Shown: positions 4,630-61,957, numbered from the stretch's first letter. The stretch is 64,000 nucleotides of DNA from Callorhinchus milii (GCF_018977255.1 NW_024704742.1:47370001-47434000), one strand, 5' to 3'. Translations and numbers: made by a program. Notes: generated from the sequence alone by a model not told the origin.

Positions 4630-5250
4630 AAATAATCCTTGCATTTGATATAGCGACTTTCATGTCAAGGGGAAGGTCTCAAAGTGCTACCCAGGTTATA
4701 CTGTAATGTGTAGTGACTATTTATTTGTATGTGAACGTGTGAACTAATTTGTGCACAACAATGTCCCACAAATTGAATGACCGGTTTTATTTGGAGGATT
4801 GTTGGCCAGGACACTCGCTTCTCTTTTTGAGCAATGCCAAGGGATCTTTTACGGTGGAGTCCTGTAGCTCAGTGGTTAGAGCACTCGCCTTGCAAGCGAG
4901 ACACCTGGATTCAATTCCCTGCAGGGCGAAACCTTGGGCAAGTTTCCTTACTCCACACGCCTAATAATAATCCCTCCAAAACCAAAAACAATAATAAATT
5001 GGTCATTTTCAATCTACGACTGTTTGTGGGACATTGCTGTGCGCAATTGGCTGCCGCGTTCGCCCACAAATATACAGTCAATTCACTTTACAGTGTGTTC
5101 TGTGAAGCGCTTTGGGACGTCCTCCCGATGTGAAAAGCACTATATCAAATGCAAGGATTATTATTACGTCCACTTGAACAGGCAGACGGGACTTGTTTTA
5201 ATGTCTCATCCAAAGGTCTATACCTACAACAATGCAACACAACCTTAACA
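4630..5250 (-). mobile_element. Old DeuSINE-like SINE, interrupted by the young SINE at 4854-5166
   Basis: Antisense tail AATAATCCTTGCATTTGATATAGC at 4631. The body GGGATCTTTTAC resumes as GTCCACTTGAACAGGCAGACGGG after 5166. Confidence 0.75.
4854..5166 (+). mobile_element. Young tRNA-derived SINE, short variant, with L2-like 3' tail
   Basis: Head GGAGTCCTGTAGCTCAGTGGTTAGAGCACTCGCCTTGCAAG with A/B-box-like motifs. Tail GCGCTTTGGGACGTCCTCCCGATGTGAAAAGC...GCAAGG(ATT)n. TTACG lies at both junctions. Confidence 0.92.
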
Positions 5251-5485: not shown

Positions 5486-5818
5486 GTGGAGTCCTGTAGC
5501 TCAGTGGTTAGAGCACTCGCTTTGCAAGTGAGAGACCTGAGTTCAATTCCAGGCAGGGAGAAACCTTGGGCAAGTTTCCTTACTCCACACACAGCCTAAT
5601 AATAATCCCTCCAAAAAACCAAAAACAATAATTAAATTGGTCATTTTCAATCTACGACTGTTTGTGGGATATTGCTGTGCACAATTGGCTGCCGTGTTCG
5701 CCCACAAATATACAGTCAATTCACTTTACAGTGTGTTCTGTGAAGCGCTTTGGGACGTCCTCCTGACGTGAAAAGCGCTATATCAAATGCAAGGATTATT
5801 ATTATAAGGATTATTATT
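5486..5818 (+). mobile_element. Young tRNA-derived SINE, short variant
   Basis: Near-identical to 4854-5166, with a duplicated AAGGATTATTATT tail. Confidence 0.92.
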
Positions 5819-8726: not shown

Positions 8727-9530
8727 AAACAAAAATAAAAGTTGCTGGTAATACTCAGCAGGTCAGGCAGCATTTATGGAGAAAAGAAAGTGAGTCAATG
8801 TTTCGGGTCCATGACCCTTCATCAGAAGTGGGGCGTGTTGGGATGGAGAGGCTCTGGAACTCCATCCCCCAGTGCCTTCGCCTTGCTTCCTCCCTCTCCT
8901 CCTTCAAGGCCGGTCTCAAAACCTTTCTCTTTGACCGAACCTTCAGCTCCCCTCTCGACTCTCTTCCCCCTTCTCGCTCCCTCCCATCCCTCCCCTCACC
9001 CTGACCATTTCCCCCCTGCTCGGGTCATGACCCAACTGTGCAGCGCCTTGGGACGTCCTCCTGACGTGAAAGGTGCTTTATAAATGGAATCTTGTTGTTG
9101 TTGTTGTTGTTGGTGTTGTTTTAGGGACTAACAGAGAGGGGGGAGACAGGGCAAGGAAGACAAAGGAGAAAATGGGGTCGAGGACAGGGGGTGATGGGTT
9201 AAAGAGGTGTTAATGATGTAAAACCACATCATCTGGGTCTCAGACACACCTTTTCTCTCTCTGGTCTTCTGGTATTGTTGCAATTCCCCTACCCCTTTGT
9301 TTTGCATTATTACCACCTCTTTTCCTTTGTTTTGTTGCAATCCCCCATTTTGGTAACCCTTAAAAACTTCTCCCCCCCCAACATGCGCCAGTTCTGACAA
9401 AGGGTTATGGACCCAAAACATTGACTCATTTTCCTTTCTCCATAGATGCTGCCTGACCTGCTGAGTGTTCCCAGGAACTTCTGTTTTTGTTTCAGATTTC
9501 TAACATCTGCAATATTTTGCGTTTTGGGTT
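8727..9530. mobile_element. Penelope-like element with inverted terminal arms, interrupted by an L2 3' fragment
   Basis: Minus arm is 8727-8847 plus 9125-9223; plus arm is 9224-9530. Both align by eye to 7856-8245. Confidence 0.7.
8848..9121 (+). mobile_element. L2 LINE 3' end fragment
   Basis: Translates LWNSIPQCLRLASSLSSFKAGLKTFLF. Its 3' UTR and (TTG)n tail are nearly identical to 53463-53720. Confidence 0.92.
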
Positions 9531-12186: not shown

Positions 12187-14022
12187 ATTCTTTCTGGTCA
12201 AACAAAAGTGTGTGAATCTCCTGGAAGGGGAGGAGAGATAAAACCAGATAGGCAGTCCACCTTAACAGAGGTTGACCAAATGTTCATTCTTTGTATGCAT
12301 CATTGTAGTTACCACCACCAGCCTACATTGGACTTCATCACCCTCCTACCCCCACCCTCCCTGCCCTCCAGCCCTCCTGATCCTAATCTGCGTGGAGGGC
12401 ATTATATAAGTGCATTGTTGTTGTTAATACATAATTAATATGCCCACCTACAAACAACAACAAAATTACATTTAGATAGCGCCTTTCACATCGGGAGGAC
12501 ATCCCAAGACACTGCACGTCCCAAAACGCACAGTTACTGAATTTTACAATAAATCTTGTGAAGCACTTTGGGGTGTTCTCAGGTCATGAAGGCATTATAC
12601 CAAATGTAAGGATTATTGTTATTAATTTTTCAGATACACAGCCAGGATCATGTTGATGCAGCTAGTTTTAAACCACGAGTTAACTTCTCCCTGCTTTTGT
12701 TCCGAACTTCGTTTCTGTGCTTTATTTCTTTTTTATATGGGCAATTTTGTTAAAAATAAATGATTCCCCTTTTTAATGCACTTCTACCCACATCTCAAGT
12801 GAAGCAACCAGCATCCAGACATCTGCATCTGTCACCTTTGGCCAACCTCTGTTAAGGCTGGACTGCCTATCTGGTTTTATCTCTCCTCCCCTTCTAGGAG
12901 ATTCCACACTTTTGTTTGATCAGAAAGAATTAGGTTCCCTTTCACAATCTTTGACAAGAGGGGACAGGAGATGTGTAAGCCACCCCAAAATGACTAAATC
13001 TCAGGAAGTTCCTCTTATTATTAATACAATGAAATACTTAAACTTTCATTGTTGAATGTCACATTGATTTAGATAGACTGTGAAATTCAGATCAACCGAT
13101 TTCCATCAAAAGGTTATTGAAGGACTTAATTTGTTTGGACACTTCTGGGGATGAACCTATTGATTCTTACCTGCTCTTTTGTAATACAAATACTACACTC
13201 AACTAGTTCTTCTCTTCCAACCCCTTCCCCAAGGGCACATTGTGTGTCCTAATAAAGTTCCCATTAAACTTTGAACTTCTAAGAACTGATTGATGGGGAT
13301 TAAATGATAAGATATCCTTGAACTGGGAAGTTTATTAAGTTTGTCTTTATAACTGACAATTATGATTTCCTTGCCTTTAGCGAAGGATCCAAAATGCTTT
13401 GAACTGGAGTTGCATGAAAAAGGGAGTGGCTTGTTCATAAATAATATCTGATGAAGTTACTTCTGGTAATAAATCATTATGTCTCCTGATCATAGTTTGT
13501 GAAATGTATATAAGGTTTCTGTACTCTGGATTGGTTTATTTCTTGAATGACTTGAAATTTTCTTCCCAAATCAAAGAATGTTTTGAGATATATTAAGGCA
13601 CAATGAGAGAGTACTGTGAATAGCCAAAAATATAATTCTGTTATACAAAAACAAACAATGTTATACAAAAAAAGAACAAAAAATATTTCTGTTCGTCTTT
13701 TCAATCACTTATTTGACCTTCTGTGACCTTCTTTACCTGATACAGTAGTGTTTAGTTTGAGTACAACATTACAGCAATAGCAACAAATAAATGTTGCTTT
13801 GCAGTGACTTAAAGCATAAGTTTTAACATTTATCGGGTACAGGATACAACTAACTTGCAAAATTGTCACTGAAGAAATGTCTAATATAAATGATTATACA
13901 TGTTAAATGTCTCATTAAATTGTTGCAGTAATGATCCACTATTTCGACAATATTTTAAACACCATTCTCTTCCACAATTAAAATATTATGTTACTGTTAA
14001 TTAAGCAATTGAGAAATATTGT

Positions 14023-14278
14023 GGCCTGAGTTCAATTCCAGGCAGGGCGAAACCTTGGGCAAGTTTCCTTACTCCACACGCCTAATAATAATCCCTCCAA
14101 AAAACAAAAACAATAATAAATTGGTCATTTTCAATCTACGACTGTTTGTGGGACATTGCTGTGCGCAATTGGCTGCCGCGTTCGCCCACAAATATACAGT
14201 CAATTCACTTTACAGTCTATTCTGTGAAGCGCTTTGGGACGTCCTCCCGACGTGAAAAGCGCTATATCAAATGCAAGG

Positions 14279-15632: not shown

Positions 15633-15925
15633 TAGCGCTTTGGGACGTCCTCCCGACGTGAAAGGCGCTTTATAAATGTAATTTTGTTGTTGGTGTTGTA
15701 CTGATTTAGATTTCACCTGTGTGCTCAAGTCAAGAGATCAGCTTAAATTCGTCAGTCTGAAACAGATAATAATAATAATGATAATAATAATAATAATAAT
15801 AATCGTTGCATTTGATGTAGAAATCCTTGCCCTAACATATCATTGAGACGTCTCCAAGCACTTCACGCAATCTACTGTAAAGTTAAGTGACTGTATTTTG
15901 TGGGTGAAATGCGGCAGCCATTTAT
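15633..15925. mobile_element. L2 tail (+, 15633-15698) and SINE 3' end (-, 15766-15925) with an (AAT)n tract
   Basis: GCGCTTTGGGACGTCCTCCCGACGTGAAAGGCGC...(TTG), then an antisense SINE tail. Confidence 0.8.
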
Positions 15926-20404: not shown

Positions 20405-21362
20405 ATCATCCTCTTTCTGTCTCCCTCCCCTGTCCTTTGTTGTCTCTAATGGCTTCTCCTCCAGTCCCTGCACTGTCACATCTGGTGTCCCCCAGGGCTC
20501 TGTCCTTGGCCCTCTCCTCTTTAATATCTACATGCTCCCCCTTGGTGACATCATCCGCAGACATGGGGTCAACTTCCATATGTATGCGGATGACACACAA
20601 CTCTTATCTTTCTGCCTCCACCCTCAACTCCAGGACCACTGCTGTCCTGACAGACTGCCTGTCAGACATCAAGTCCTGGATGAGGGCAAATTTCCTACAG
20701 TTGAATGTGAACAAGACTGAGGCCCTCCTGATTCACTCGCGCCAACGCCTCAGCACCTCAGGCTCTGACAGCATCAACCTCCAACCTCACACTACAACTC
20801 ACCAAGCCAGTCAGGAACCTAGGTGTCTTGTTCTTCCCTCAACTGTCTTTTCTTCCCCACATCCAAGCCTTGACCCGCTCTGCCTTTCCTCAAGTCTGAC
20901 CCCATCACTCCCACCCTCGCCCGACTCCACTGGCTCCCCATCCTTCAGAGGATCGAATTCAAGATTCTCGTCGTCATTTTCAAGGCCATCCATGGCCTTG
21001 CCCCCTCCTATCTCTCTGACCTGCTGACTCCTTACTAACCTGCCCACTCCCTCCGTTCAGCTGGCTCCGGTTTGCTCCATGTCTCCCGCCCGACCCGCCC
21101 TACCATCGGTGGCCCGGCTTTCAGCCTCTCTGCCGCCACACTCTGGAACTCCATCCCACAGTCCCTTCGCCTCACTTCCTCCCTTGCCTCCTTCAAGGCC
21201 GGTCTCAACACCCTCCTCTTCGATCATGCCTTCAGTCGCCCTCCCATCTCTCTGCTTTCCCTCACCCCTACCCCACCCTTCCCCCATGCTCGGGTCTTGA
21301 CCCCTGACTGTCCAGCGCCTTGGGACATTCTCCCGACGTGAAATGTAATTTTGTTGTTGTTG
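20405..21362 (+). mobile_element. L2 LINE 3' fragment with internal deletion
   Basis: [24 protein letters not shown] and TDCLSDIKSWMRANFLQLNVNKTEALL, then a 3' tail with (TTG)n. Confidence 0.92.
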
Positions 21363-42350: not shown

Positions 42351-45300
42351 GTTTATTTGTTAATGTTTTATCCAATTGAGGGATGTCAGGTTTGCAGAAG
42401 AAAAATATAATAATCCTTGCATTTGGTATAGTAGTATATTCTGCAAAGTGTTTTGAGACATCTATTAGACATGATATATTAAATGCAAGGATTATTATTA
42501 TTATTTTACAGCAATTATCAGTGAAGAGCTTGAAATGCTTTCACATGTCTTGCTATTAAAATGCAAGTTTTCCTAGAAAATGGTTTGGATAGTTTTAAGC
42601 ATGGTGATGGGTTTCCACAACTGTCAGACACTCGGCTAATCAAAAAAATAGAAAATATACAATCATTAAACATTACAGTGAAATCCTGTGAAGCACTTTG
42701 AGACATCCTCCGGATGTGAAAGGCGCAATATCAAGGATCATTCTTATAATTTTTAGTTCTTTCATATTTATTTTCATAAAGGCACGACTACTGCAGAAAT
42801 GTAATATTCTTCATTTTCAACAGCAGCAATTGCCTTGAGTGAGATTGACAGCCTGTGCAAAGCTGCAGGATAGTTGTGTGGTGAGCCTGTGACTACTGGG
42901 AACTATAAGCTGATAAACAACACTTTCTAAATTTAAACCTAATTACAGAGGTGAAGGGATTGTACTGTAACTCACTACACCACCCATTCATCAAAATCAA
43001 AACACGTAAAAAGTTACAAACCATAAGGATTCACGATCGATTTCTGCATCGTTGCTGACGGATTTTCCAATTTGCTGCGTGAGCTTATTTACTTCCTCCC
43101 CAACCCCATTCTACCATACCCAACATTGCACCATAATAATTGATCTATTTTAGTAGCTGAATCTAGTTCCCATACATGTTTGAGTCAGCCTAACTTGGCT
43201 TGGATCACTTCAAGCCAAGTTTATCCTTCAAATAAGATGCCTTTTGCAGAACACAGCAGTTCCTCTTTCCATATTGAGGGGTGAAATTTGGGACATTTCG
43301 TAACAAATTGATCATTTGTTTCATGGCTGTTCATGGGGCATTGCTAGGTGCAATTTGGCTGTCGCATTCACCAACAAGTACCCAGTCAATGCCAGACACA
43401 AAGAGGCTATGGCAGCAAGATGATCGACCTACCATCAAGATATCACAGCTAAGCTCAATGTGCTGTTTGACAGGCTCACTCTCCAGCAAGGGGTTTCTGA
43501 ACAGTGATCAGAAGTGGGAACCCTGGCTGTTTTTTCACCTTGCCAACTCAACGGGTGCTGAGGCCAATTTTAGGGCCTCACTCTTGCCCTCTCTGTGAGC
43601 AGGTAGCTCAGTACAGACCACTGGCAATCAAACCTGCAACTTTCTGGTTCATATGATGTAATGCACAATCTTTAGCCTCTGGACCAACAGAATCAGCACC
43701 AAGGAGATCTTTTAGGACTAGATCATGTAAAAAGCATATTAGTGGAGATGAATAGAGGAGCTTAACTCTGCATCACTCCACACTACAGCATGTGTGACTT
43801 GAAAGTGCTTGACACTGACACTGAGCGCTTAAGGTGGAAAGGTGCTCAAATTTAACGTCCCTTATCTCATTAGCAGAAAATTACTGCTAAAACTTAAATG
43901 TAGAACTGAAACCTCCAATGCTATGCTGGCCGATAGGGATAACGTATATAGCGCATAAGCATACATTTCCATGTTTGGTGTTTCAATTTCTTTCCTGTTT
44001 CCTCTGAGGTGAGACTTGTGCTAGGTGTAATTGTGTGTGTGTGGGAGGGGGGTGGGGGCAACAACACTCTATATACTTTATCCAGAAGGTAAAATGCATA
44101 TGATAGATTGCAGTGGGAGGTAACTTACAACAATTTGCTACAATATTCAGAGGATGTTCCCCACTGTATCCACACAATCCTGTTCTCACCCTAATGCCCA
44201 TTAACTTGCAAGAAGAAACAGAATCCGTAGCTGATTTCAACCCGCAAGCCAGAGGCACATTTCATTTTGTCAGCAATTTCAAGGTAATTCTCTTGGGTAA
44301 TAACCATGGGTAATAACTACAATTAAATGGCTTTCAAATTCTGCATTACAAAGTAATCTGTGATATTCCGCACCCTTGTGATTTGCAGTGACCTGCACTG
44401 TGTGTGTTTTGAATCCTTGTTATCAGTAGCTGTTTCCAACATTGGTTGATTTGCACAAGCCAAACCTAAGCACAGTATTAGAACGATGGTGCAATAAAAT
44501 GCTTGAATAATGTAAACTGTTTTATGGTCACAATAAACTCCAGAGTATATTCTGTGCTTGGTCCTCTTCACAAGGCGATCCCGACATTCCGAATTTGTGC
44601 TTCTCCTCTGGAGAATGAAGACAGCCGACACAGCTGCCAGATATTGAATAGTTCTATTAGGAGTGTCTCACATCACTAATCCAGTAATGTAGCCTCGTAC
44701 CCAATTAAATTAATTTAATTAAAATGCAGCACAAATGAATCACAACCTTTGAAGTAACAGTGAGTCTTTATAAAAGTGAGTTTCTCCAAACAGCTTACTT
44801 CCCAACCCACTACCCATTGGCTCCAGTCTCCTGCTTGTCCTTTGTGCCCTACGTTCCACCATCACTACACCCTGAAACTCTGAAATACTCTCCCTCAATC
44901 TATCCACATTGCCCCCTCCTTCATTATCTTCAGGTCGCGTCTGATGACCTTCCAATGGTCTTTCAACCCCGCCAATGGTCACCTCCTCCCAGCTTGGCGT
45001 TGTGGAATGCTTCCCTGCATGAGGGACACTATATAAATGTTGTTGCTGCTATAAATCCAACACAAATTTATGATTCCATTTTATGTAACCATCAACCCTG
45101 ATCCAAGTACAGTATATTTTTTCTGGCAAATGGGATTCTTTTATAAGGCGGGTTTACTTATAAGACAGAACTATAGTCAGCTTTGCGTGCAAACAGAGGC
45201 CAGGCTAAACGATGTGTGGCTTCCAGGCCATCAGGTCACTGTCATCAGGTTAGTGTTCACTGCATGAAGATGCTCTTGGCACTATTCAGTTTCTCCCAGT

Positions 45301-47302
45301 GTCGTAGCCAACAATCCCTAAAATAAATTTGGGCATTCACTTTGTGGCTGTGCACAAATTGGCTGGTGCTATATCAAATGCAAGAATTAGTATTATATTA
45401 TCCCCAGTGGATTGACTTAAAGATCCACTTCTTCATTTTCAAATGTTTCTATGGCCTTACCCTTTGCAATCTCTTGGGATCCTATTTCCCCTCCCACCCA
45501 TCTCGTTCGTTCCCCAACTCTGGCCTTTATCATTTCCCCTGCCCACTTTGCCCCACCATTGGTGGACAAATTTTCAGACACTTTACTCCCACTCTCTGGA
45601 ATTCTCTTCTAACATGAACAAAGATTCATCCTGAGCTAAAGATCAACTAGTGTTGGTCACTCTTTGGTATCTCACCCAGAGGCTATTCCTAATGTGTGAG
45701 ACTAGATAGGGATGATCGTCTGTCGATTTGACTAAAGGGAGGATCATAATCAAATCTGATCAACTCTTCAACAAAGTTATAGTAGACCAAATGAATATCA
45801 ATAAGTCTAGAATCAGAGATGCATAGAGATTTATGACCCATTAAGCCTGCCCTGGAATTTAATATGTAGTTTAATCACCGACAAAATAGCACCTGAGAAA
45901 TCATTGTTCGTATACGCAATAGTACCACTCAAGTTGAGATCTTTATTTGTCAATTGAAGACTTTTACATGAGGACACAGGTCCAGGGTTATGAAGGGCAA
46001 GTTTAAGTCAGACATCAGGAAATATTTCTTTACAAAGAGTATGGGTAACAGCTAGAATGGGTTACCAGGAAGGGTGGTGAGGACAGTACCTTGGCATTGT
46101 GTAAGAAAAAGTTTGACTCTGTAATTGTAAAATGATAGGGTGATATTCTCTATAGAGATTATCTTAAATAAGCCAAATCTGTCCTGTGACCTTGTGACCC
46201 ACACCAAAAACCTCAAAACAGGTTTTATGTGAGACACATAAAATAATAGAAGCAGTACATAGCAGAGAGGATTGCCAAAAAATGCATATTAAGAAACATT
46301 TTCAAGGAAATAAAACATCAACTAGCTCTTAAATAGCACAGTTTATGTCAACAAGAAACAACATATACCACTGCACAAAATATAATTAATAAGAAATAAT
46401 GTAAATGTTGACATACTGTTCAATAGTACTATTAAAAATAGTAAGATGCAAAACAACTAGGAATACAAATAGGTAACTTTGCACATTACTTGTCCAGCTA
46501 TCTTTTAGGACTTTGGTTAGGGAATGAAGCATCTATACTTCTCATTGATGAATCTTGGATTATTGCGGTCCCATCTGGCTTTGCAAGGAACCTGTTCACA
46601 AAGACAGTTCAGCCCCAAGAGATCTACTTACTTATGAAATAAAGTAAGTGCTAAATGTTAAAAGGTGATAGAACAGAGATGAATCTTTGGTGATATAGAG
46701 TTATCCAAACAGTATGGGTATCTGAGATTGTATCAGAGGTACTCAACAGACCGGTTCTTATCCAGTCTGTCCAAACATCTGTTATACATTCCTGACAAAC
46801 TGCTTCCATAGATGATATCATGTATCATATTCTAAATGTTAATGATGAGAATCCAAGATAAAATCAACACAGTTGATGGACTTGAAGAATATCAAGTAAA
46901 TGAGGCATGGATAATCCCACTGCTTGCTGGTTTTTAATAATGAATCCCACTCACCTCCACATTGGTGCATTTTACTAATATCACTGATAGTGATAGCTTG
47001 CATATTACAGGCTGATCCTGTTCTAATACAATGGTTTTTGGCCACAGACCAGGATCCTGCATTAAGACCTAAAATGGCCACTTGTCAGCGCTTCTTGATC
47101 GTCGGGTTATGTTGACATCATTTCCTGCACAAAGTGACATCAACAGTGCTTCCAGTGCATATTGAGCATGTACTGTACTTCTGGTATACTGCAGGTCCAT
47201 GTTGTGACTGTACTATTAGCCGGCCTGTGCTATACTAAAGCATGTTACAACAAGTCAGCCTGTATGATATACAAACGATTGCTCGCAGGTGTTAGAGCAA
47301 TG

Positions 47303-47565
47303 TCAGCCCGGCTCAGTTGGTAGCACCTTCGTCTCATGGACAAAGATTGTGAATTCAAACCCCTCATCTGGACTTGACCTCCTAATCTAGGCTGATGCCA
47401 TGAAGAAGTGCTCAGAGATTTAGGTAGATCTTATTTTTTGGGTAAAACTTAGGTCCCATTTGCCTGTTTTGAGGGCACAGATGGGCCTTAAAGATCCCAT
47501 AACATTATTGTAAAAGAGAAGGGAGTTACTTCCTCTTAATGTCATTGCCAGAATTCCCCTAGAAA
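47303..47565 (+). mobile_element. Old DeuSINE-like SINE, 3'-truncated
   Basis: GTCAGCCCGGCTCAGTTGGTAGCACC head and AAAGATCCCAT...AAAAGAGAAGGGAGTT. Confidence 0.65.
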
Positions 47566-47891
47566 TGAATTGTAGTTGCTTTAGCTTGACCTGCTCATTT
47601 CTTTAGAAAAGAGATTAATATAATTTCTGTGTCGTGCCATATGTTTCAGATCCTGATAATTAGGTGACATTTATGATAACATTTTGTGATATTGAATTTT
47701 TTTTTCTCTTCCTCTCCAATTTTCTCTCCTGATAATACAGACACACACTATGAGACAGAAGTGCTTGATACTGACATTGGGGACTTAAGTATTATAAAGC
47801 ACGAGGCGGCAGGGAGTTCAGCCACACGGAGAGCGGCGGCAGGACAGCGCGGGGAGGAGCCTGGGCCCACCTTCTCAGGTAGTATAAAGCA

Positions 47892-50276
47892 CGGCCTTGA
47901 AGGAGGAAAGGTAGGAAGCGGCGAAGGCACTGGGGGATAGAGTTCCAGAGCCTCGGGGCTGAGAGGCTGAAGGCCCGGCCACCGATGGTAGGGCGGTTGG
48001 GGCGGGGGATGTGGAGCAGACCGGAGCCAGAGGAATGGAGGGTACGGGCAGGTAGGTAGGGGGATAGTAGGTCAGAGAGGTAGGAGGGAGCAAGGCCGTG
48101 AATGGCCTTGTAGGTGAGGATGAGGATCTTGAATTCGATCCTCTGGGGGATGGGGAGCCAGTGGAGGCGAGCGAGGGTGGGAGTGATGTGGTCCCGAAGC
48201 CTGGTGCGGGACAGTACACGAGCTGCAGAGTTCTGAATGACCTGCAGCTTGTGGAGGGAGGTGCCGGGAAGGCCGGCGAGGAGAGAGTTCCCATAGTCCA
48301 GCCTTGAGGTGATAAAGGCGTGGACCAGAGTTTCAGCAGCGTGAGGGGTGAGGTAGTGCCGTAGTCTGGCGATATTCCGGAGGTGATGGAAGGCGGTGCC
48401 AGTTGTGGCGCGGAAATGAGGAAGAAAGGACAGCTCAGGGTCGAACAGAATCCCGAGGTTCCTGACGGCTTTGAGAGGTGGAGAGTGCAGCCTTGGATGC
48501 TGATGCTGTCAGCGCCTGAGGTGCGGAGGCGCTGACGTGAGCCAATCAGGAGGGCCTCAGTTTTGCGCACGTTGAGCTGAAGAAAGTTATCTCTCGTCCA
48601 GGACTCGATGTCGGACAGGCAGCTGTCAGGACATCGGTGGTCGTGGAGTTGAGGGTAGAGGAGGAAAGGTAGAGTTGGGTGTCATCCGCATACATGTGGA
48701 AGTTAACCCCATGTCTGCGGATGATGTCACCAAGGGGGAGCATATAGAGGGTGAAGAGGAGGGGACCGAGGACAGAGCCCTGAGGGACACCGCACGAGAC
48801 AGTGCGGGGGCCGGAGGAAAAACCATTTGTGGAGACAAAGTGGAGACGTTGGGAGAGGTACGACCTAAACCACTCAAGGACAGTGCCTTGAAGGTTGAGA
48901 TGGGAGGACAGGCGATGGAGGAGGATAGTGTGGTCGACCGTATCGAATGCTGCCGATAGGTCGAGGAGGACGAGGAGGCAGAGGGAGCCCTGGTCACAGA
49001 TGGTCAGGATGTCATTGGTGACCTTGACCAGGGCGGTTTCTGTGCTATGGGCAGCACGGAAACCTGACTGAAGGGGTTCGAATAGTGAATGGTTGGAGAG
49101 GAAAGAGCGCAGCTGGGAGGCGACAACTCCTTCCAGAACCTTGGTCAGGAAGGGGAGGTTGGAGATGGGCCGGTAGCTTGATAGCTGCGACGCATCAAGG
49201 GAGGGTTTTTTTAAGGTGGGAGTGATGGTGGCAGTTTTTAAGGGAATGGGAATAGAGCCAGAGGAGAGGGACAGGTTGACGATGTCTGTGATATGTGGGG
49301 CAAGGAGGTGGAGCTGAGAGATAAGGAGTGGAGTGGGGATGGGGTCAAGGGAGCAGGTGGTGGGTTTAAGGGATAGGATGAGTTTGGTGACAGAGGGTGG
49401 GGAAACGGGTACGAAGGTGTGTAGGGGAGGATGGGTAGGAGTCGGAGTGTGGGAGGGAAGGGGTGGGTGGTGGGTGGATGTTGGAGGGGAAGTGACCGCG
49501 GAGCGAATTCCCTTGATCTTGGATTCAAGGAAATCCAGCATCTCCTCGCAGTGAAGGTTGGAGGAGATGACCTGCGTGGGGTGGCGGGGGGGACGGAGGA
49601 GTTGGGATGTGGTAGAGAACAGTAGCCTGGGGTTGTCCTTCGCCTCCAGGATTATCCTGGAGTAGAAGGACGATTTGGCCGAGGCTAGAGTGGAGTGGTA
49701 GATTTTGAGGAGGTCCAGCCAGATTTGTCTGTGGACTGTTAGGCCAGATTTGACCCAGGTGTGTTCAACGGCCCACACCTGGGTCTTCAGTGAGCGGAGG
49801 TGGGTAGTGAACCAGGGGGAGGAGCGAGAGTAGGAGACAGTACGGGAGGTGATAGGGGCAAGAGTGTCAAGTGTGGAGGAGAGGGTGTTGTGGAGGAGGG
49901 TGAGAGCAGAAGAGGGGTCAGTGAGGGTTGAGGGCCAGCGGGAGAGGAGTTTAGAGGACTCCAAGGCAGAGGTTAGGGACTGAGGGGGTAACTTCTTCCA
50001 GGGGCGGTAGAAGATGGTGGTGGTTCTGGTGGAGGTGGGGAGTGGAGGTGGTGAAGGAGATGAAGTGGTGATCGGAGACGGCCTTGTCGGTGATGGTGAC
50101 ATCCGAGACACTGAGGCCCCGGGTGATCACCAAATCGAGTGGGTGGCCGTGAATGTGAGTGGGGGAGTTGATGTGGAGGGAGAGGTTGAGCGAGGAGAGG
50201 AGGGAGGAGAAGTCCGAGGAGATGGAGCAGGAGGGGGTGAAGTGCAGGTTAAAGTCACCCAGGATGATGAGGCGAT
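47892..50276 (-). mobile_element. L2 LINE internal ORF2 segment, truncated at both ends (no 3' UTR or tail)
   Basis: ORF 48546-50111 has [48 protein letters not shown] and YADD. Aligns to 51136-53526 as an inverted copy. Confidence 0.95.
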
Positions 50277-53200
50277 TTAGCTCGGTGGGTGGGGCTGTGG
50301 GTGTGTGTGGGGGCAGAGCGGGGGAACTGCTGACGTCATAGTTTAGTTTCAGGAGTGTGCGCGCGCAAAAAAAAAAAAAACCTCTGCGCCCCCCCCCCAG
50401 CCCCCGGGGCTCGCATCAGGGACCACCATGGTCCTGTTGGGTTGGCTGCCCCAGCCCCAGCCTATGGGCTAATGCCATCCACCTGACGCTCGCTCCCTGT
50501 CCCCGCGTGAGCATTATGGCTGCCACTCTGACCCTCGTCCCCTCTCCACCTCCCTCCCTCCCCCTTCCTCTCTGTCCAGCAGCAGCCACACCGACTGCCC
50601 CATTCCCCACCACACTCGCCACCCACCCCGGACACAGACCCGGGGAGCCAACCTCTCCTCCCTCATCCCCATTCCCCGCACCCCTGCCTCACAACCTGGA
50701 CACCCCTCCCTCCCCACACACCTTCTGTCAACCGTTCCCTCCACATCGGACTACAAAACGTCCGCTCCCTCTGTAACAAGGCCCTGGTCATCAACAATCT
50801 CATCCTTGATGAGAGCATTGACATTATGGCCTTAACGGAAACCTGGCTCACCCCAGGCGACACCTTCCCCCTCACGGAGGCCACAACACCCGGCTACACC
50901 TCTCACCACATCCCTCGCCCCAACCACCGTGGAGGTGGTGTAGCCCTTATCTCAAGGACACCACTTGCCCTATCTCCCTACTCCTCTGGCTCTTTCCCCT
51001 CTTTTGAGCACCTCACCCTCTCCCACCCCTCCTTCCTCTCACTCAAAATCCTCCTCCTCTACCGGCCCCCTAAAACCTCTCCCACCTTCATCTCCGATAT
51101 TTCCACCCTACTTACTTCCCTCTGCCTCTGCTCTGATCGCCTCATCATCCTGGGCGACTTCAACCTGCACTTCACCCCCTCCTGCTCCATCTCCTCGGAC
51201 TTCTCCTCCCTGCTCTCCTCGCTCAACCTCTCCCTCCACATCAACTCCGCCACTCACAGTCACGGCCACCCACTCGATTTGGTGATCACCCGGGGCCTCA
51301 GTGTCTCTGATGTCACCATTACCAAGAAGTCCGTCTCCGATCACCACTTCATCTCCTTCACCACCTCCACCCCTCTACCCACCTCCACCAGACCCACCAC
51401 CATCTTCTACCGCCCTTGGAAGAAGTTACCGCCACAATCCCTAACCGCTGCCTTGGAGTCCTCTGAACTCCTCTCCCTCTGGCCTTCAACCCTCACTGAC
51501 CCCTCTTCTGCTCTCACCCTCCTCCACAACACCCTCTTCTCCACACTCGACACTCTTGCCCCCATCACCTCCCGTACTGTCTCCTACTCTCGCTCCTCCC
51601 CCTGGTTCACTACCCACCTCCGCTCACTGAAGAGCCAGGTGCGGGCCGCTGAACGCACCTACGTCAAATCTGGCCTACCGGTCCACAGACAAATCTGGCT
51701 GGACCTCCTCAAAATCTACCGCTCCACTCTAGCCTCGGCCAAGTCGTCCTTCTACTCCAGGATAATCCTGGAGGCGAAGAACAACCCCAGGCTTCTGTTT
51801 TCTACCACATCCCGACTCCTCCGTCCCCCCGCCACCCCGCGCAGGTCATCTCCTCCAACCTTCATTGCGAGGAGATGCTGGATTTCCTTGAATTCAAAAT
51901 CAAGGAAATCCGCTCCGCGGTCACTCCCCCTCCAACTTCCACCCACCCCCCCACCGCTTGCCTCCCACACTCTGACTCCTACCCATCCTCCCCTACACAC
52001 CTTCGTACCCGTTTCCCCACCCTCTGTCACCAAACTCATCCTGTCCCTGAAACCCACCACCTGCTCCCTTGACCCCATCCCCACTCCAATCCTTATTTCT
52101 CAGCTCCACTTCCTTGCCCCACTTATCACAGACATCATCAACCTGTCCGTCTCCTCTGGCTCTGTTCCCATTCCCCTAAAAACTGCCATCATCACTCCCA
52201 CTTTGAAAAAATCCTCCCTTGATGCGTCGCAGCTATCAAGCTACCGGCCCATCTCCAACCTCCCCTTCCTGTCCAAAGTCCTTGAACAAGTTGTCGCCTC
52301 CCAGCTGTGCTCTTTCCTCTCCACCCATTCATTATTCGAACCCCTTCAGTCGGGTTTCCGTGCTGCCCATAGCACAGAAACCGCCCTGGTCAAGGTCACC
52401 AATGACATCTTAACCATCTGTGACCAGGGCTCCCTCTGCCTCCTCGTCCTCCTCTACCTATCGGCAGCATTCGATACGGTCGACCACACTATCCTCCTCC
52501 ACCGCTTGTCCTCCCACCTCAACCTTCAAGGCCCTGTCCTTGAGTGGTTCAGGTCGTACCTCTCCCACCGTCTTCATTTTGTTTCCACAAGCAGCTTTTC
52601 CTCCACCCCCGCACTGTATCGTGCGGTGTCCCTCAGGGCTCTGACCTCGGTCCCCTCCTCTTCACCCTCTATATGCTCCCCCTTCGTGACATCATCCGCA
52701 GACATGGGGTTAACTTTCACATGTACGTGGATGACACCCAACTCTACCTTTCCTCCTCTGCCCTCAACTCCACGACCACCGATGTCCTGACAGCTGCCTG
52801 TCCGACATCGAGTCCTGGATGAGAGATAACTTTCTTCAGCTCAATGTGCGCAAAACCGAGGCCCTCCTGATTGGCTCACGTCAGCGCCTCCGCACCTCAG
52901 GCGCTGACAGCATCAGCATCCAAGGCTGCACTCTCCACCTCTCAAAGTCAGTCAGGAACCTCGGAGTTCTGTTCGACCCTGAGCTGTCTATTCTTCCTCA
53001 TATCCGCGCCACAACTGGCACCGCCTTCCATCACCTCCGAAACATCGCCAGACTACGGCACTACCTCACCCCTCACACTGCTGAAACTCTGGTCCACGCC
53101 TTTATCACCTCAAGGCTGGACTATGGGAACTCTCTCCTCGCCGGCCTTCCCGCCACCTCCCTCCACAAGCTGCAGGTCATTCAGAACTCTGCAGCTCGTG

Positions 53201-53720
53201 TACTGTCCCGCACCAGGCTTCGGGACCACATCACTCCCACCCTCGCTCGGCTCCACTGGCTCCCCATCCCCCAGAGGATCAAATTCAAGATCCTCATCCT
53301 CACCTATAAGGCCATCCACGGCCTCGCTCCCTCCTACCTCTCTGACCTACTATCCCCCTACCTACCTGCCCGTACCCTCCGTTCCTCTGGCTCCGGTCTG
53401 CTCCACATCCCCCGCCCCAATCGCCCTACCATCGGTGGCCGGGCTTTCAGCGTCTCAGCCCCGAGGCTCTGGAACTCCATCCCCCAGTACCTTCGCCGCC
53501 TCCTCCCTCTCCTCCTTCAAGGCCGGTCTCAAAACCTTTCTCTTTGACCGTGCCTTCAGCTCCCCTCTCGACTCTCTTCCCCCTCCTCGCTCCCTCCCTT
53601 CCCTCCCCTCACCCTGACCATTTCCCCAATGCTCGGGTCCTGACCCAACTGTGCAGCGCCTTGGGACGTCCTCCTGACGTGAAAGGCGCTTTATAAATGG
53701 AATCTTGTTGTTGTTGTTGT
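50277..53720 (+). mobile_element. Near-full-length L2 LINE (APE endonuclease + RT, apparently single ORF), frameshifted pseudocopy
   Basis: QNVRSL, ALTETWL, GGGVA, GDFN, LDL and SDH endonuclease motifs. RT motifs are mutated (LYLSAAFD, YVDD). Frameshifts near 51830, 51950, 52610, 52792 and 53497. 3' stem-loop and (TTG)n tail end at ~53720. Confidence 0.95.
50331..50338. promoter_or_regulatory. Perfect CRE palindrome (TGACGTCA) in the putative L2 5' UTR
   Basis: Exact motif in a GC-rich stretch upstream of L2 ORF2. Function not shown. Confidence 0.3.
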
Positions 53721-53909
53721 TTTGTATCTGTAGGCAAATACAGTAGCTAATTTGCACACAGCAAGATCTACAAACAACCATGAAGTAATTGATCAATTTA
53801 TCAGGAGAATTGCTGGGGAAGAGTCTTTTTTTCAAATTACATCAAGCGATCTGTAACATTCACCAAAAGACAGGCAGATGTGGCCTTGTTTAAGATTACA
53901 TCCGAAAGA

Positions 53910-54835
53910 CAACAACAACAACAAAATTACATTCATAGAGCGCCTTTCACGTCGGGAGGACGTCCCAAGGCACTGGACAGTCAGGGGTCAGGATCCGAGC
54001 AAGGGGTCGAGAGGTGGGGTAGGGGTGAGGGAAGGTGGGAGGGCGACTGAAGGCACGACTGAAGAGGAGGGTCTTGAGATCGACCTTGAAGGATGCGAGG
54101 GAGGAAGCGAGGCAAAGGGACTGTGGGATGGAGTTCCAGAGTGTGGGGCCAGAGATGCTGAAAGCCCGGCCACCGATGGTAGGGCGGTCAGGCGGGAGAC
54201 ATGGAGCAGGCCAGAGCCCGATGAACGGAGAAAGAGGGCAGGTTGGTAGGGAGTCAGCAGGTCGGAGAGGTAGGAGGGGGTAAGGCCATGGATGGCCTTG
54301 AAAGTGAGGACGAGGAACTTGAATTCGATCCTCTGAGGGATGGGGAGCCAGTGGAGTCGGGCGAGGGTGGGAGTGATGGAGTCACGGAGCCTGGTCGCTA
54401 GAGTACACGAGCTGCAGAGTTTTGGATGATCTGCAGCTTGTGAATTTGCCGCAGTGATATGATGCCAATAATCAATTCTGTCACAAGAAAACTTCCTGTT
54501 CCGCGATTAGTGAAAGAATGAAATGTAGAATGCGTTACAATCCATGTGCCCGGTTTAGCTTTCCTTTTTTAATGACCTGCTTTTCAATTTCCGATCAGTT
54601 TAACACATTCTGTAAATTCAAACCGAATCAACAAAAACAACAACAAACTTACATTTATAGGCGCTCTATAAATGTAATTTTGTCGTTGTTGTTGAAGGGA
54701 AGAGTTGGGAAGACCGATTAGGAGGGAGTTTCCATAATCGAGCCTTGATTTGACGAATGCGTGGGGAAGGGTTTCAGCAGCCTGAGGGGTGAGGCACTGG
54801 CAGAGTCTGGCAATGTTGCAATAAGTTGGAAAGAC
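53910..54835 (-). mobile_element. L2 3' fragment split by a ~250 bp insertion (54443-54693)
   Basis: (CAA)n tail at 53910. The L2 sequence breaks at GCAGCTTGTG and resumes GAAGGGAAGAGTTGGGAAG; compare the uninterrupted 56660-56690. Confidence 0.9.
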
Positions 54836-56129: not shown

Positions 56130-57350
56130 ATAAAAACAACAACAAAATTACATTTATAGAGCGCCTTTCACGTTGAGAGGAGGTCCCAAGGCGGTGGACA
56201 GTCAGGGATCAGGACCCGAGCATGGGATAGGGGTGGTGGAGGGGTGAGGGAAGACAGAGAGGTGGGAGAGCGATCGAAGGCTTGATTGAAGAGGAAGGTC
56301 TTGAGACCGGCCTTGAAGGAGGCAAGGGAGGAAGTGAGGTGAAGGGAGTGTGGGATGGAGTTCCAGAGTGTGGGGGCAAAGAGGCTGAAAGCCCGACCAC
56401 CGATGGTAGGGCGGGTCGGGTGGGAGACGTGGAGCAGGCCAGAGCCCACTGAACGGAGGGAGCGGGCAGGTTGGTAGGGAGTCAGTAGGTCAAAGAGGTA
56501 GGAGGGGACAAGGCCATCGATGGTCTTGAAAGTGAGGACGAGGATCTTGAATCGATCCTCTGGTGGATGGGGAGCCAGTGGAGTCGGGCGAGGGTGGGAG
56601 TGATGGGGTTGCGGAGCCTGGTGCGTGAGAGTACACGAGCTGCAGAGTTTTGGATGATCTGCAGCTTGTGGAGGGAAGAGTTGGGAAGGCCGATGAGGAG
56701 GGAATTTCCATAATCGAGCCTTGATGTGATGAATGCATGGTAAGGGTTTCGGCAGCCTGAGGGGTGAGGCAGTGCGTGGAGTCTGGCAATGTTGTGGAGG
56801 TGGTGGTAGGCAGTTCTAGTCATGGTGTGGATGTGGAGGAGAAAGGACATTTCAGAGTCAAACAAGATGCCCAGGTTCCTGACTGGCTTAGTGAGGTTGA
56901 GTGTGCAGTCGTGGAGGCTGATGCTGCCAGCGCCTGAGGCGCTGGCGCGAGCCAATCAGGAGGGCCTCGGTCTTGCTGACGTTCAGCTGGAGAAAGTTGT
57001 CCCTCATCCGGGACTTGATGTTGGACAGGTAGTCGGTTAGGATGCCAGTAGTCCTGGAGTTGAGGGTGGAGGCAGAGAGTTAGAGTTGGTGTCATCTGCA
57101 TACATGTGGAAATCTACCCCATGTCTGGGGATGATATCACCAAGGGGGAGCATGTAGAGGGTGAACCGAGGACAGAGCCCTGAGTAACGCAGCACGAAAC
57201 AGTGCAGGGGTTGGAGGAGAAGCCATTAGCTGAGACGAAGTGGAGGGAATGTGAAAGGGAGGATCTGAACCAGTCAAGGACAGAACCTTGGAGGTTGAGG
57301 TGGGAGGAGAGGCGGTGGAGGAGGATTGAATGATCCACAGTGTCAAAAGT
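56130..57350 (-). mobile_element. L2 LINE 3' ~1.2 kb, decayed
   Basis: [32 protein letters not shown] and LHWLPI motifs, with a (CAA)n tail at 56135. Confidence 0.93.
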
Positions 57351-59720: not shown

Positions 59721-61957
59721 GGTGAGGAAAGTTATCTTGGACAGAGATCGAACATGAGGAAGGAAGGGGATTGAAACAAATGCAGAGTGACCCCTTCTGG
59801 AAGTACCTATATGTTAACATTAGATGATAACAAAATTGGTCTTGGCTGTGAAAGTTTCCTTCAGTCAAGTAGTACATTGATTCTCACTCTCAAGTTTTAA
59901 GGATGGTGCTTTGAAGAGATACAATCAAATACAACTTGATGTAGCTGTAGTTCAGCTTAAAGTACTCTGGAACTCTACCCGTGTGAGGGGCGCTTTGTAT
60001 GTCCTCCCGTCCTCCCGACGTGAAAGGTGCTCCATAAATTTTTGCTGTTGTTGTATGCAAGTTGTTGTTGTGGTTGTTGTGCACCTTCAGAAGATCAAGG
60101 GGAGCACATCTTGAATGACAATTGAAGGATTAGATAATAGTGTTGATTATCACAACTGAAAAGGATGAAAAGCCCTGCTGTTTGTTTTCAGAATCTTTCT
60201 GGTATCTTGCCCAAGTGGTCAGCCTAGGGAATGTGTGTTAACAGGTTATTTTACTGCAACAGTCATCACGCCTATTCCGTTCTCACCCAGTATGGGCCTA
60301 CATATGTGCATTTTGGCGTCAGGTCCACTGGATTGAAGAATTAACGTGCATAGAGAAACAGAATTGTTGGCCTGAATGACAAGCATTAATTATTGTATAT
60401 CCTCATTGTTCTTACCTTAACAATAAACAATCCATGACATTGTTTCACGGTTGCTGTTTATTAGATGGCAAAATACCAGTGTTAAGTGTTTTGGTATTTA
60501 TACATTCGCACGAGGTATGATGTGTCAGGTTTTCCAAGGAAGTGACTAATGAGCCAGCACAAATAAAATTCAGGTGAGCAGTAAACTCTGTGCATCGCAG
60601 AGCTCATTTTTCATGTTTTGGGTTATAAAATTAGTCAATCTCGAAAATGCGATGTTGAAAAGGCATCTCTACTGTGGCTCCCAACTCTGTATCCTGCTAG
60701 AGGCTGCTATTTCAATCTGCTAGTTCTTTGGGTGTGTGTGCAGCTTTGTCAGGGTCGTGTGGTGGGCCAGGACCTTTGCCAAGAACCACATTCAGACAAT
60801 CAGTGAACACTGACAGTTACTTTGCAGTTTATCGATTTATTGCTGAAGGCGTCAGATTAAGAACAGGGAGGGGGACAGCCCATGAATCACCAGGGAGTCT
60901 GTCAAATTATGATAATCCTGTAACTATAGAGTGTAACTAGCAGTTGTATCATTATTCAAATTCAGATTTTCTGGATAAATTGCTACAGCAAATAAAGCCA
61001 TTTTCTTTCATTCCGAATGTCTTAAACAACCAATAAGATTAATTTTTTAAGTTATGGTCACACTTCACTGAACAAACTAACCTATTATTAATGATTATAA
61101 ACCATAACAGAAAGGTTGCCCTTTTTAGTGAGCAGCGTAAAACAGACCCCGACTCATTAACGGCCTTCAGGTGAGACGTTAAACTAAGCTCTGCCTGCTT
61201 GTTCAGGTGAGCGTTAACAATCCCATGGCACTATTTGCAAAGAGAAGGGAGTTTCTCCCGAGGTCCTGGCCAACAACACCACAGTTAAAATTGGTCCTTC
61301 ACTTCATCTGTTAGTCGGGCACCAACATGTGCGTTTGCCTACAAGTCCTCAGTCACTAAACTTTACAGAAATTCCTTCTGAAGCTCTTTGAAATGTTTTG
61401 ATATTATATTAGCAGTTATAAATATATTATACATATTATAAATGCAAGGATCATTTCATTATAATTTGAAACTGACTTAGCTCAAATTGGATAATACTTT
61501 TGGTTCTGCAATCACAAGAGACAAACATCTGGAAAACTACAAAGGAATACGAAACAAATCATTTGGGCATCGTTCAAAAATACTCAAATTTACTTAACCT
61601 AGTCCATTTGTACCTTCAAGTTGTTTTTAAATATTGTGTATTTTTAGTGGATGTTTTAAACATTATCTTGGGAAATGAAACATTGTGTCTCTCAGCAACA
61701 GCCTCACACGCACAGCCCCAGGTCGGGTGTGGCGTACCCTAAGTAGGGTTACACCCAATTAACTGGTCACACCCAAAACTCCCTTTCAGTTGCTGATCGA
61801 CTTGCTGCTTATTCCCTGCATTTTCTTTTTTTTTATTTCAGATTTGCAGCATTCTCGGTATTTTCTTTTTAACTCAGCCAGGAGCAGACAAATACTCCTC
61901 GCGCACTTCCTGAGAATATGCATAAACTCAACTCACAGGATTTTACTGTGAAGTGTT

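Follow-up and report, generated by a model that had tools for sequence, protein, structure and literature searches.

A 64,000-nucleotide stretch of the Callorhinchus milii genome (GCF_018977255.1, NW_024704742.1:47370001-47434000; hereafter the window, from the first letter of which all positions are counted) contains a large head-to-head inverted repeat formed by two copies of a long interspersed element (LINE) of the L2 type. We consider it very probable that this structure is nested, that is, that an older, full-length but already defective L2 on the plus strand (the host) later received in its 5' untranslated region (UTR) an independent, backward insertion of a piece of an L2 that belongs to a younger sublineage (Table 1). 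The two arms of the repeat descend independently, not from each other, and the two frameshifting deletions present in both arms were not made at this locus but are diagnostic of a defective L2 lineage, at least 1,500 copies of which are dispersed over the genome. Thus, the locus is what transposon nesting commonly produces where L2 elements abound, and the sharing of the two deletions by the arms is unremarkable because both states are common across the L2 family.

The repeat was initially noticed by a model that was given the DNA alone (hereafter the sequence-only reading), and its geometry holds. In an inverted-repeat search of the window, the minus arm (47892-50276) and the plus arm (51136-53526) appear as seven collinear inverted segments with 93-97% complementarity, and a BLAST comparison of the plus region against the window yields a single minus-strand high-scoring segment pair of 2392 nt with 94.44% identity and 9 gap positions. 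The identity of roughly 95% that had been estimated by eye comes to 94.40% in a global alignment of the arms, in which 2259 of 2393 columns match; there are 124 mismatches (85 transitions and 39 transversions) and 6 indel events. The innermost ends of the arms are separated by 859 nt, as compared with the approximately 860 bp given originally, and this apparent spacer consists of the host's own 5' UTR plus the endonuclease-coding part. As homologous copies of a transposon, the arms are far more similar than chance would allow. The designation L2 comes from the sequence-only reading; the domain order and the features of the tail are compatible with it.

Table 1 Features of the nested L2 locus (window coordinates)
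Feature	Position	Strand	Remarks
Inverted L2 fragment (minus arm), 2,385 nt	47892-50276	-	Homologous to 51136-53526; younger sublineage than host
Host L2, full-length but defective	47789-47893 plus 50277-53722	+	Split by the inverted fragment
First ~105 nt of host 5' UTR (~1.2 copies of a ~84-nt UTR monomer)	47789-47893	+	Aligns with the far 5' end of the UTR in full-length copies
Rest of host 5' UTR and leader	50277-50756	+	~150 nt fewer at 50571/50572 than in most full-length copies
Apurinic-type endonuclease domain	50757-51344	+	Pfam Exo_endo_phos, E 3e-13, residues 76-271 of ORF 50532-52787
Plus arm (mirrored by the inverted fragment)	51136-53526	+	By alignment; RVT_1 at residues 562-680
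Site 1, ACAGCTGCCTG (ACAG-CTGCCTG), one-base loss ~15 codons past the YxDD motif of the reverse transcriptase	52790-52800	+	Mirror at 48616-48626 (-)
Site 2, CTTCGCCGC, two-base loss altering the last few dozen ORF residues	53491-53499	+	Mirror at 47918-47926 (-)
3' tail of host L2: stem-loop, then (TTG)n	53645-53722	+	No counterpart in the minus arm

The two arms belong to different L2 sublineages

For comparison with the arms, 59 L2 copies were fetched from the genome in a non-random manner: L002-L030 are the best matches to a 401-nt query from the plus arm, so that the bias, if any, is towards that arm, and L031-L060 are the 30 places that come first in genome order among those with an exact 33-mer. 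Among these, 28 covered enough of the arm to be included in a tree, and identities were calculated over approximately 2,240 columns. With one of these copies (L012), the minus arm shares 97.9% identity and with six others 96.9-97.8%, compared with 94.7% for the plus arm. Altogether, 15 of the 28 copies are nearer to the minus arm than the plus arm is, and 13 are nearer to the plus arm than the minus arm is. Genome-wide, when 1.2-kb stretches were compared, the 39 best non-self matches were at 97-98% for the minus arm and at 92-96% for the plus arm, and neither arm was found among the 39 best matches of the other (for each arm, the best 40 of about 7,700 candidates were scored).

In the 30-row maximum likelihood tree, the plus arm groups with four copies (L007, L023, L005 and L026) and the minus arm with seven others (L004, L027, L012, L016, L030, L019 and L021), the two clades being split by nodes with 100% ultrafast bootstrap. 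The approximately unbiased (AU) test rejected sisterhood of the arms (delta lnL 86.4, p-AU 9.8e-5), with the free tree having been seen beforehand, although the tested grouping came from the original finding. The arms also differ in the number of private changes, with 44 in the plus arm against 15 in the minus arm among the 129 columns in which the two disagree, so that the host predates the insert, as the nested reading requires.

The shared deletions are marks of a widespread defective lineage

The two deletions are present in both arms where the sequence-only reading had placed them (Table 1), and so are the longer forms used for comparison, namely, ACAGACTGC at 20650 for site 1 and CTTCGCCTTGC at 8876 for site 2; in a diverged old copy near 57030, the additional base at site 1 is likewise retained. 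Neither deletion is confined to this locus. The 32-mer with the site 1 deletion occurs 1,514 times in the genome (760 forward and 754 reverse, against 0 for the reversed control), and the 33-mer with any one extra base, mostly C, occurs 1,510 times. For site 2, exact patterns gave 6,808 occurrences of the deleted 18-mer and 3,888 of the form with TT.

The two deletions tend to be found together: among 25 fetched copies deleted at site 1, 17 are deleted at site 2 as well, 5 have TT and 3 could not be scored. Of the 35 places with the site 1 deletion that are listed for contig C1 between 8.55 and 12.66 Mb, 22 are followed on the same strand by the site-2-deleted 18-mer, some 690-700 nt further downstream; 6 carry the TT form instead, and the remaining 7 match neither of the two patterns exactly. 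Given these counts and the co-occurrence, both indels are lineage marks rather than local events, which supports one of the original suggestions, that of a defective L2 subfamily mobilised in trans. Both deletions disrupt the frame: it stays open beyond 550 aa, the distance to site 1, in none of the 12 site-1-deleted copies with near-full coverage, and 8 of the 14 near-fully covered copies with the inserted C and TT are open across the whole 744-749 aa compared. A systematic consensus error at site 1 is unlikely because the site is a run of only two bases and because, on the tree, the deletion is accompanied by other substitutions.

The state of site 1 is not monophyletic in the 30-row tree, where the undeleted copies L015, L027, L042 and L043 are found among deleted clades. 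This scatter points to repeated loss or regain of the base, or else to mosaic elements produced by template switching between lineages. The copies L032-L058, which are undeleted at both sites, form a tight clade of near-identical sequences with terminal branches of 0-0.003, suggesting that this lineage was active in the genome very recently.

The host element and the insertion junctions

The host encodes an endonuclease followed by a reverse transcriptase within one large open reading frame (ORF; 50532-52787), in which Pfam detects RVT_1 with an E value of 1.6e-11, and the plus arm has two private frame shifts, at 51824 (-1) and 51946 (+1). Beyond the plus arm, the host extends for another ~197 nt to the (TTG)n tail near 53722, where several other copies in the window end too. 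At the opposite end, the element can be followed across the insert: 50572-50900 matches dozens of copies at 96-97%, 50279-50573 matches the 5' UTRs of these copies at 74-89%, and 47795-47893 matches the very start of the same UTRs. In a copy on contig C25, the three host pieces are contiguous and in one orientation, and the UTR runs continuously through the insertion point in all 10 full-length copies that match both the left and the right probes. In 9 of these 10 copies, homology to the left piece stops at 47893, and in the remaining one at 47882; on the right, it resumes at 50276-50309. Relative to such paralogous full-length copies, the host UTR lacks about 16 nt at the point of insertion.

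The inserted fragment is truncated at both ends, on the 5' side in the endonuclease-coding part and on the 3' side ~197 nt before the tail. The observation in the sequence-only reading that the minus arm lacks the 3' tail thus holds, the arm ending at the equivalent of 53525/6. The fragment includes an ORF (48549-50126) with an RVT_1 match at E 5.5e-30 (Pfam). No target-site duplication flanks the minus arm, and nothing is duplicated at the junctions. At the left junction, the CG at 47892-47893 fits both partners, a 2-nt microhomology, and at the right junction, 0-3 nt are ambiguous depending on the guide copy; 2 nt on the left and 0-3 nt on the right are too short to stand out from chance. 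Each of the two junction 34-mers is present only once in the 991.5-Mb assembly at up to three mismatches, so that the composite has never itself been copied.

Around the plus-strand element as a whole, no target-site duplication is evident by eye in the flanks, from which no conclusion is drawn. Within the UTR, other copies have some 140-152 extra bases between the matches to 50279-50573 and 50572-50900; one copy, on contig C2, matches straight across the gap at 50571-50572 with 88% identity, and the short-read contigs of other copies show loose ends just before 50572. The motif at the boundary of the UTR monomers, TATAAAGCAC (47789-47803 and 47873-47888), is nearly the reverse complement of a motif in the 3' tail, GCGCTTTATA (53688-53700), and given this near-complementarity, the 5' end of an L2 RNA could pair with its 3' end. 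The insert is integrated exactly at the TATAAAGCAC boundary motif.

Mode of integration

Under the nested reading, the older, full-length and already defective L2-type LINE would have been in place on the plus strand when a 2,385-nt piece of the younger sublineage integrated backwards, about 105 nt from the start of the host. This integration looks like end joining rather than standard target-primed reverse transcription: the insert has neither a 5' part nor a tail, its entry cost the UTR about 16 nt without forming a target-site duplication, and the left junction has a 2-nt overlap. Endonuclease-independent LINE-1 insertions are typically truncated at the 3' end. Insertions of this kind at DNA breaks, reportedly described by Morrish et al. 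in 2002, lack the hallmarks of endonuclease activity and come with target deletions and junction microhomology, according to Sen et al. 2007 (PMC1920257). Among the routes to an independent insertion, we tentatively favour, by analogy with these L1 insertions, a single step in which an L2 cDNA or fragment was captured at a DNA break. Among the same routes, an ordinary insertion followed by a deletion of ~200 nt that removed the tail is possible but somewhat doubtful, and break repair templated by another genomic L2 copy appears rather unlikely.

Several points weigh against the nested reading or against break repair as its route. The state of the UTR prior to the insertion is reconstructed from paralogous copies only, and the comparison set and the AU test carry the reservations stated above. 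Apart from the locus, 8 of the 59 sampled copies also stop before the 3' end, so that a missing tail alone is not diagnostic, and the short microhomology at the junction could be due to chance. L2-clade LINEs are of the 'stringent' type, in which the enzyme recognises the 3' tail stem-loop (PMC4176376); given such recognition, internal priming on a tail-less RNA is less expected than it is for L1, and more weight falls on insertion followed by deletion and on DNA-templated repair. Finally, the short-read contig that contains the unique flank ends at 47822, inside the UTR monomer, in all four runs (X1-X4), and among the short-read contig pieces listed for these runs, none bridges 47892 or 50276, which gives no verdict on the assembly.

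The alternative that survives best concerns the route only. A target-primed, 5'-truncated but tailed L2 would have inserted into the host UTR, and a later deletion of ~200 nt would have taken away the tail, the target-site duplication and a few bases of the UTR. LINE insertions are as a rule truncated at the 5' end and have short homology at the junction, stringent recognition favours a start at the tail (PMC4176376), and the 8 other copies that miss the 3' end indicate that secondary loss or interruption is not rare. This account nevertheless invokes two events where one suffices, and the locus retains no remnant of the tail or of a duplication, so we regard it as a somewhat unlikely explanation of the locus as a whole.

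Alternatives to an independent insertion

A chimeric or fold-back join in the assembly appears very unlikely. Repeats are where assemblies fail, and the short-read contigs do stop short of the junctions; the contig joints listed, such as those from 47822 to 50316 and from 47974 to 50411, rest on no more than 28-30 letters at their shorter side and could derive from other L2 copies. However, fold-back artefacts yield near-identical arms, whereas these arms are 5.6% apart and belong to different sublineages. Furthermore, both junctions join non-homologous sequences, and the two jointly restore the continuity of the UTR to within ~16 nt, unlike two independent misjoins.

The sequence-only reading had proposed a local fold-back duplication. 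In this alternative, the body of the host would have been copied in inverted orientation into its own 5' UTR by fold-back or template switching, either in the course of replication or repair or through snap-back or twin priming when the host itself inserted. The proximity of the inverted piece to its would-be template, the junctions with short or no homology, and the presence of both indels in the two arms fit such an event. Yet, a fold-back duplication predicts that the arms are sisters, which is contradicted by the identities, the separate clades and the AU test. Moreover, in 70 of the 129 columns that differ between the arms, the 28 other copies are likewise divided between the two states, in many columns at intermediate frequency, so that these differences fall at positions polymorphic among unrelated copies. 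Both indels are lineage-wide, and the 44 versus 15 private changes imply arms of unequal age. Twin priming, in particular, would give abutting, non-overlapping parts of a single RNA with one target-site duplication around them, but here 2.4 kb is doubled, and the first 105 nt of the host lie upstream of the inverted piece. Altogether, a local inverted duplication is highly improbable. Twin priming or snap-back during the host's own insertion was considered separately and dropped, given that the arms differ in sublineage and age.

No perfect run between the arms exceeds 96 nt, roughly as expected from a divergence of 5.6% (134 scattered differences), and only two sites are shared by the arms alone, at plus-arm positions 476 and 552, with differences between them at 507, 520 and 527. 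Gene conversion that keeps the arms alike and moved both indels between them, the other local explanation offered initially, is the least probable of all: it could occur between inverted repeats so close, and the arms agree at both indel sites, but they are less alike (94.4-94.7%) than each is to many unlinked copies, no conversion tract or long identical stretch is visible, the two arm-only sites are interrupted by differences, and no transfer is needed where both indel states are frequent in the family.

The 3' tail and probable copying in trans

The tail of the host (53645-53700) is predicted to fold into a stem-loop with a minimum free energy (MFE) of -25.5 kcal/mol (z -2.14), and 2 of 200 shuffled sequences fold equally well. 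By BLAST, this stem-loop is common to 22 of 25 site-1-deleted copies and to all 34 undeleted copies, with 89-100% identity. The tail ends in a short tandem repeat rather than in poly(A), and the same tail is found in short copies that resemble short interspersed elements (SINEs), such as the one at 5738-5792. The defective lineage would thus have been copied by an enzyme supplied in trans, most likely that of the intact L2 lineage present in the same genome, which shares this stem-loop in its 3' tail.

Short elements that consist of the tail only are scattered over the window (5100-5154, 5738-5792, 12453-12517 on the minus strand, 14222-14276, 15634-15699, 42686-42734 and 60008-60054) and are 80-92% identical to 53650-53720; these are probably SINEs with an L2 tail. 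Rfam contains a model of the tail of the eel element UnaL2; an Rfam scan of 47300-54600 with E values up to 1 gave no match. A second, small inverted repeat is formed by 53648-53723 and 53906-53981 (76 nt, 89% identity, 182 nt apart), where the tail of the plus-strand L2 faces, tail to tail, that of an older minus-strand L2 remnant (53906-54442; about 79% identical to the plus copy).

Hairpin potential

The sequence-only reading noted that the repeat, if transcribed, would form a very long double-stranded hairpin, and the predicted fold makes this physically plausible. In an RNA spanning 47892-53526, 2,304 of the 2,489 predicted base pairs would join the two arms, with an MFE of -5,306.7 kcal/mol, and the arms have 26 perfect runs of at least 30 nt in common. 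Nested or adjacent inverted pairs of LINEs or SINEs give rise to hairpin RNAs that are substrates for editing or for small-RNA production. Should a single RNA span both arms, it could plausibly serve as a substrate for dicing or editing. A much stronger proposition would be that the split UTR of the host still fires, that its transcript reads through the inverted fragment into the host's own body, and that the hairpin, with its 2.3-kb duplex, is diced or heavily edited and acts against the intact, apparently recently active L2 lineage. We consider this quite improbable; if true, one accidental nesting event would have become a standing silencing trigger.

Surroundings of the locus

Among 23 further ORFs of at least 110 aa in the window, Pfam gave only one more reverse transcriptase fragment. 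This fragment, at 1751-2149 on the plus strand (RVT_1, E 5.4e-12), has no BLAST match to the L2 studied here and probably belongs to a different retroelement. In the unique flank, all four short-read runs differ from the assembly in leaving out one base at 47697 and in adding TTCTCTCC behind 47721; these are likely differences between individuals or an assembly slip in a short repeat.

Comparison with known systems

A 2.4-kb inverted repeat with seemingly shared frameshifts may seem to suggest a local rearrangement or concerted evolution, and the results given here remove this false lead: such a structure is not evidence for either. In the inversions produced at the 5' ends of L1 elements by twin priming, an inverted LINE segment is likewise positioned head-to-head with a direct segment; at the present locus, in contrast, the two parts do not complement each other as pieces of a single RNA. 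They overlap by 2.4 kb, they belong to different sublineages, and the inverted piece is preceded by the first 105 nt of the host. Inverted pairs of LINEs or SINEs that form hairpin RNAs are similar in that two inverted homologous arms are contained in one potential transcript, for which a hairpin is predicted here.

Closer parallels exist for the insert and for the lineage to which the deletions belong. Similarly to the endonuclease-independent L1 insertions described in PMC1920257, the insert lacks a target-site duplication, is accompanied by a small loss of the target and has short homology at the left junction, which may be due to chance. It is also without both its 5' part and its 3' tail. 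The insert is compared with this kind by resemblance only, and in this case, the element is a stringent LINE of the L2 type and the target is a copy of the same family. An L2 fragment whose junctions look like those of break repair and not like those of a target-primed insertion is of modest value to transposon biology; such events are documented mainly for L1.

Elements that depend on stringent-type LINEs of the L2 clade are, like SINEs, copied in trans by way of a stem-loop in the 3' tail that they have in common with the LINE (work on UnaL2 and ZfL2; PMC4176376 and PMC1636434). The situation in C. milii is comparable in that the defective lineage keeps the tail of the intact lineage and that the SINE-like elements in the window have this tail as well. 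Unlike a short SINE, however, the putative passenger in C. milii is a LINE of nearly full length whose reverse transcriptase is frameshifted by one base, and its mobilization in trans is deduced from sequence features. A near full-length L2 lineage with a frameshifted reverse transcriptase is as numerous as its intact sister form (1,514 versus 1,510 exact patterns) and would represent a natural case of trans-mobilization in a stringent-type LINE.

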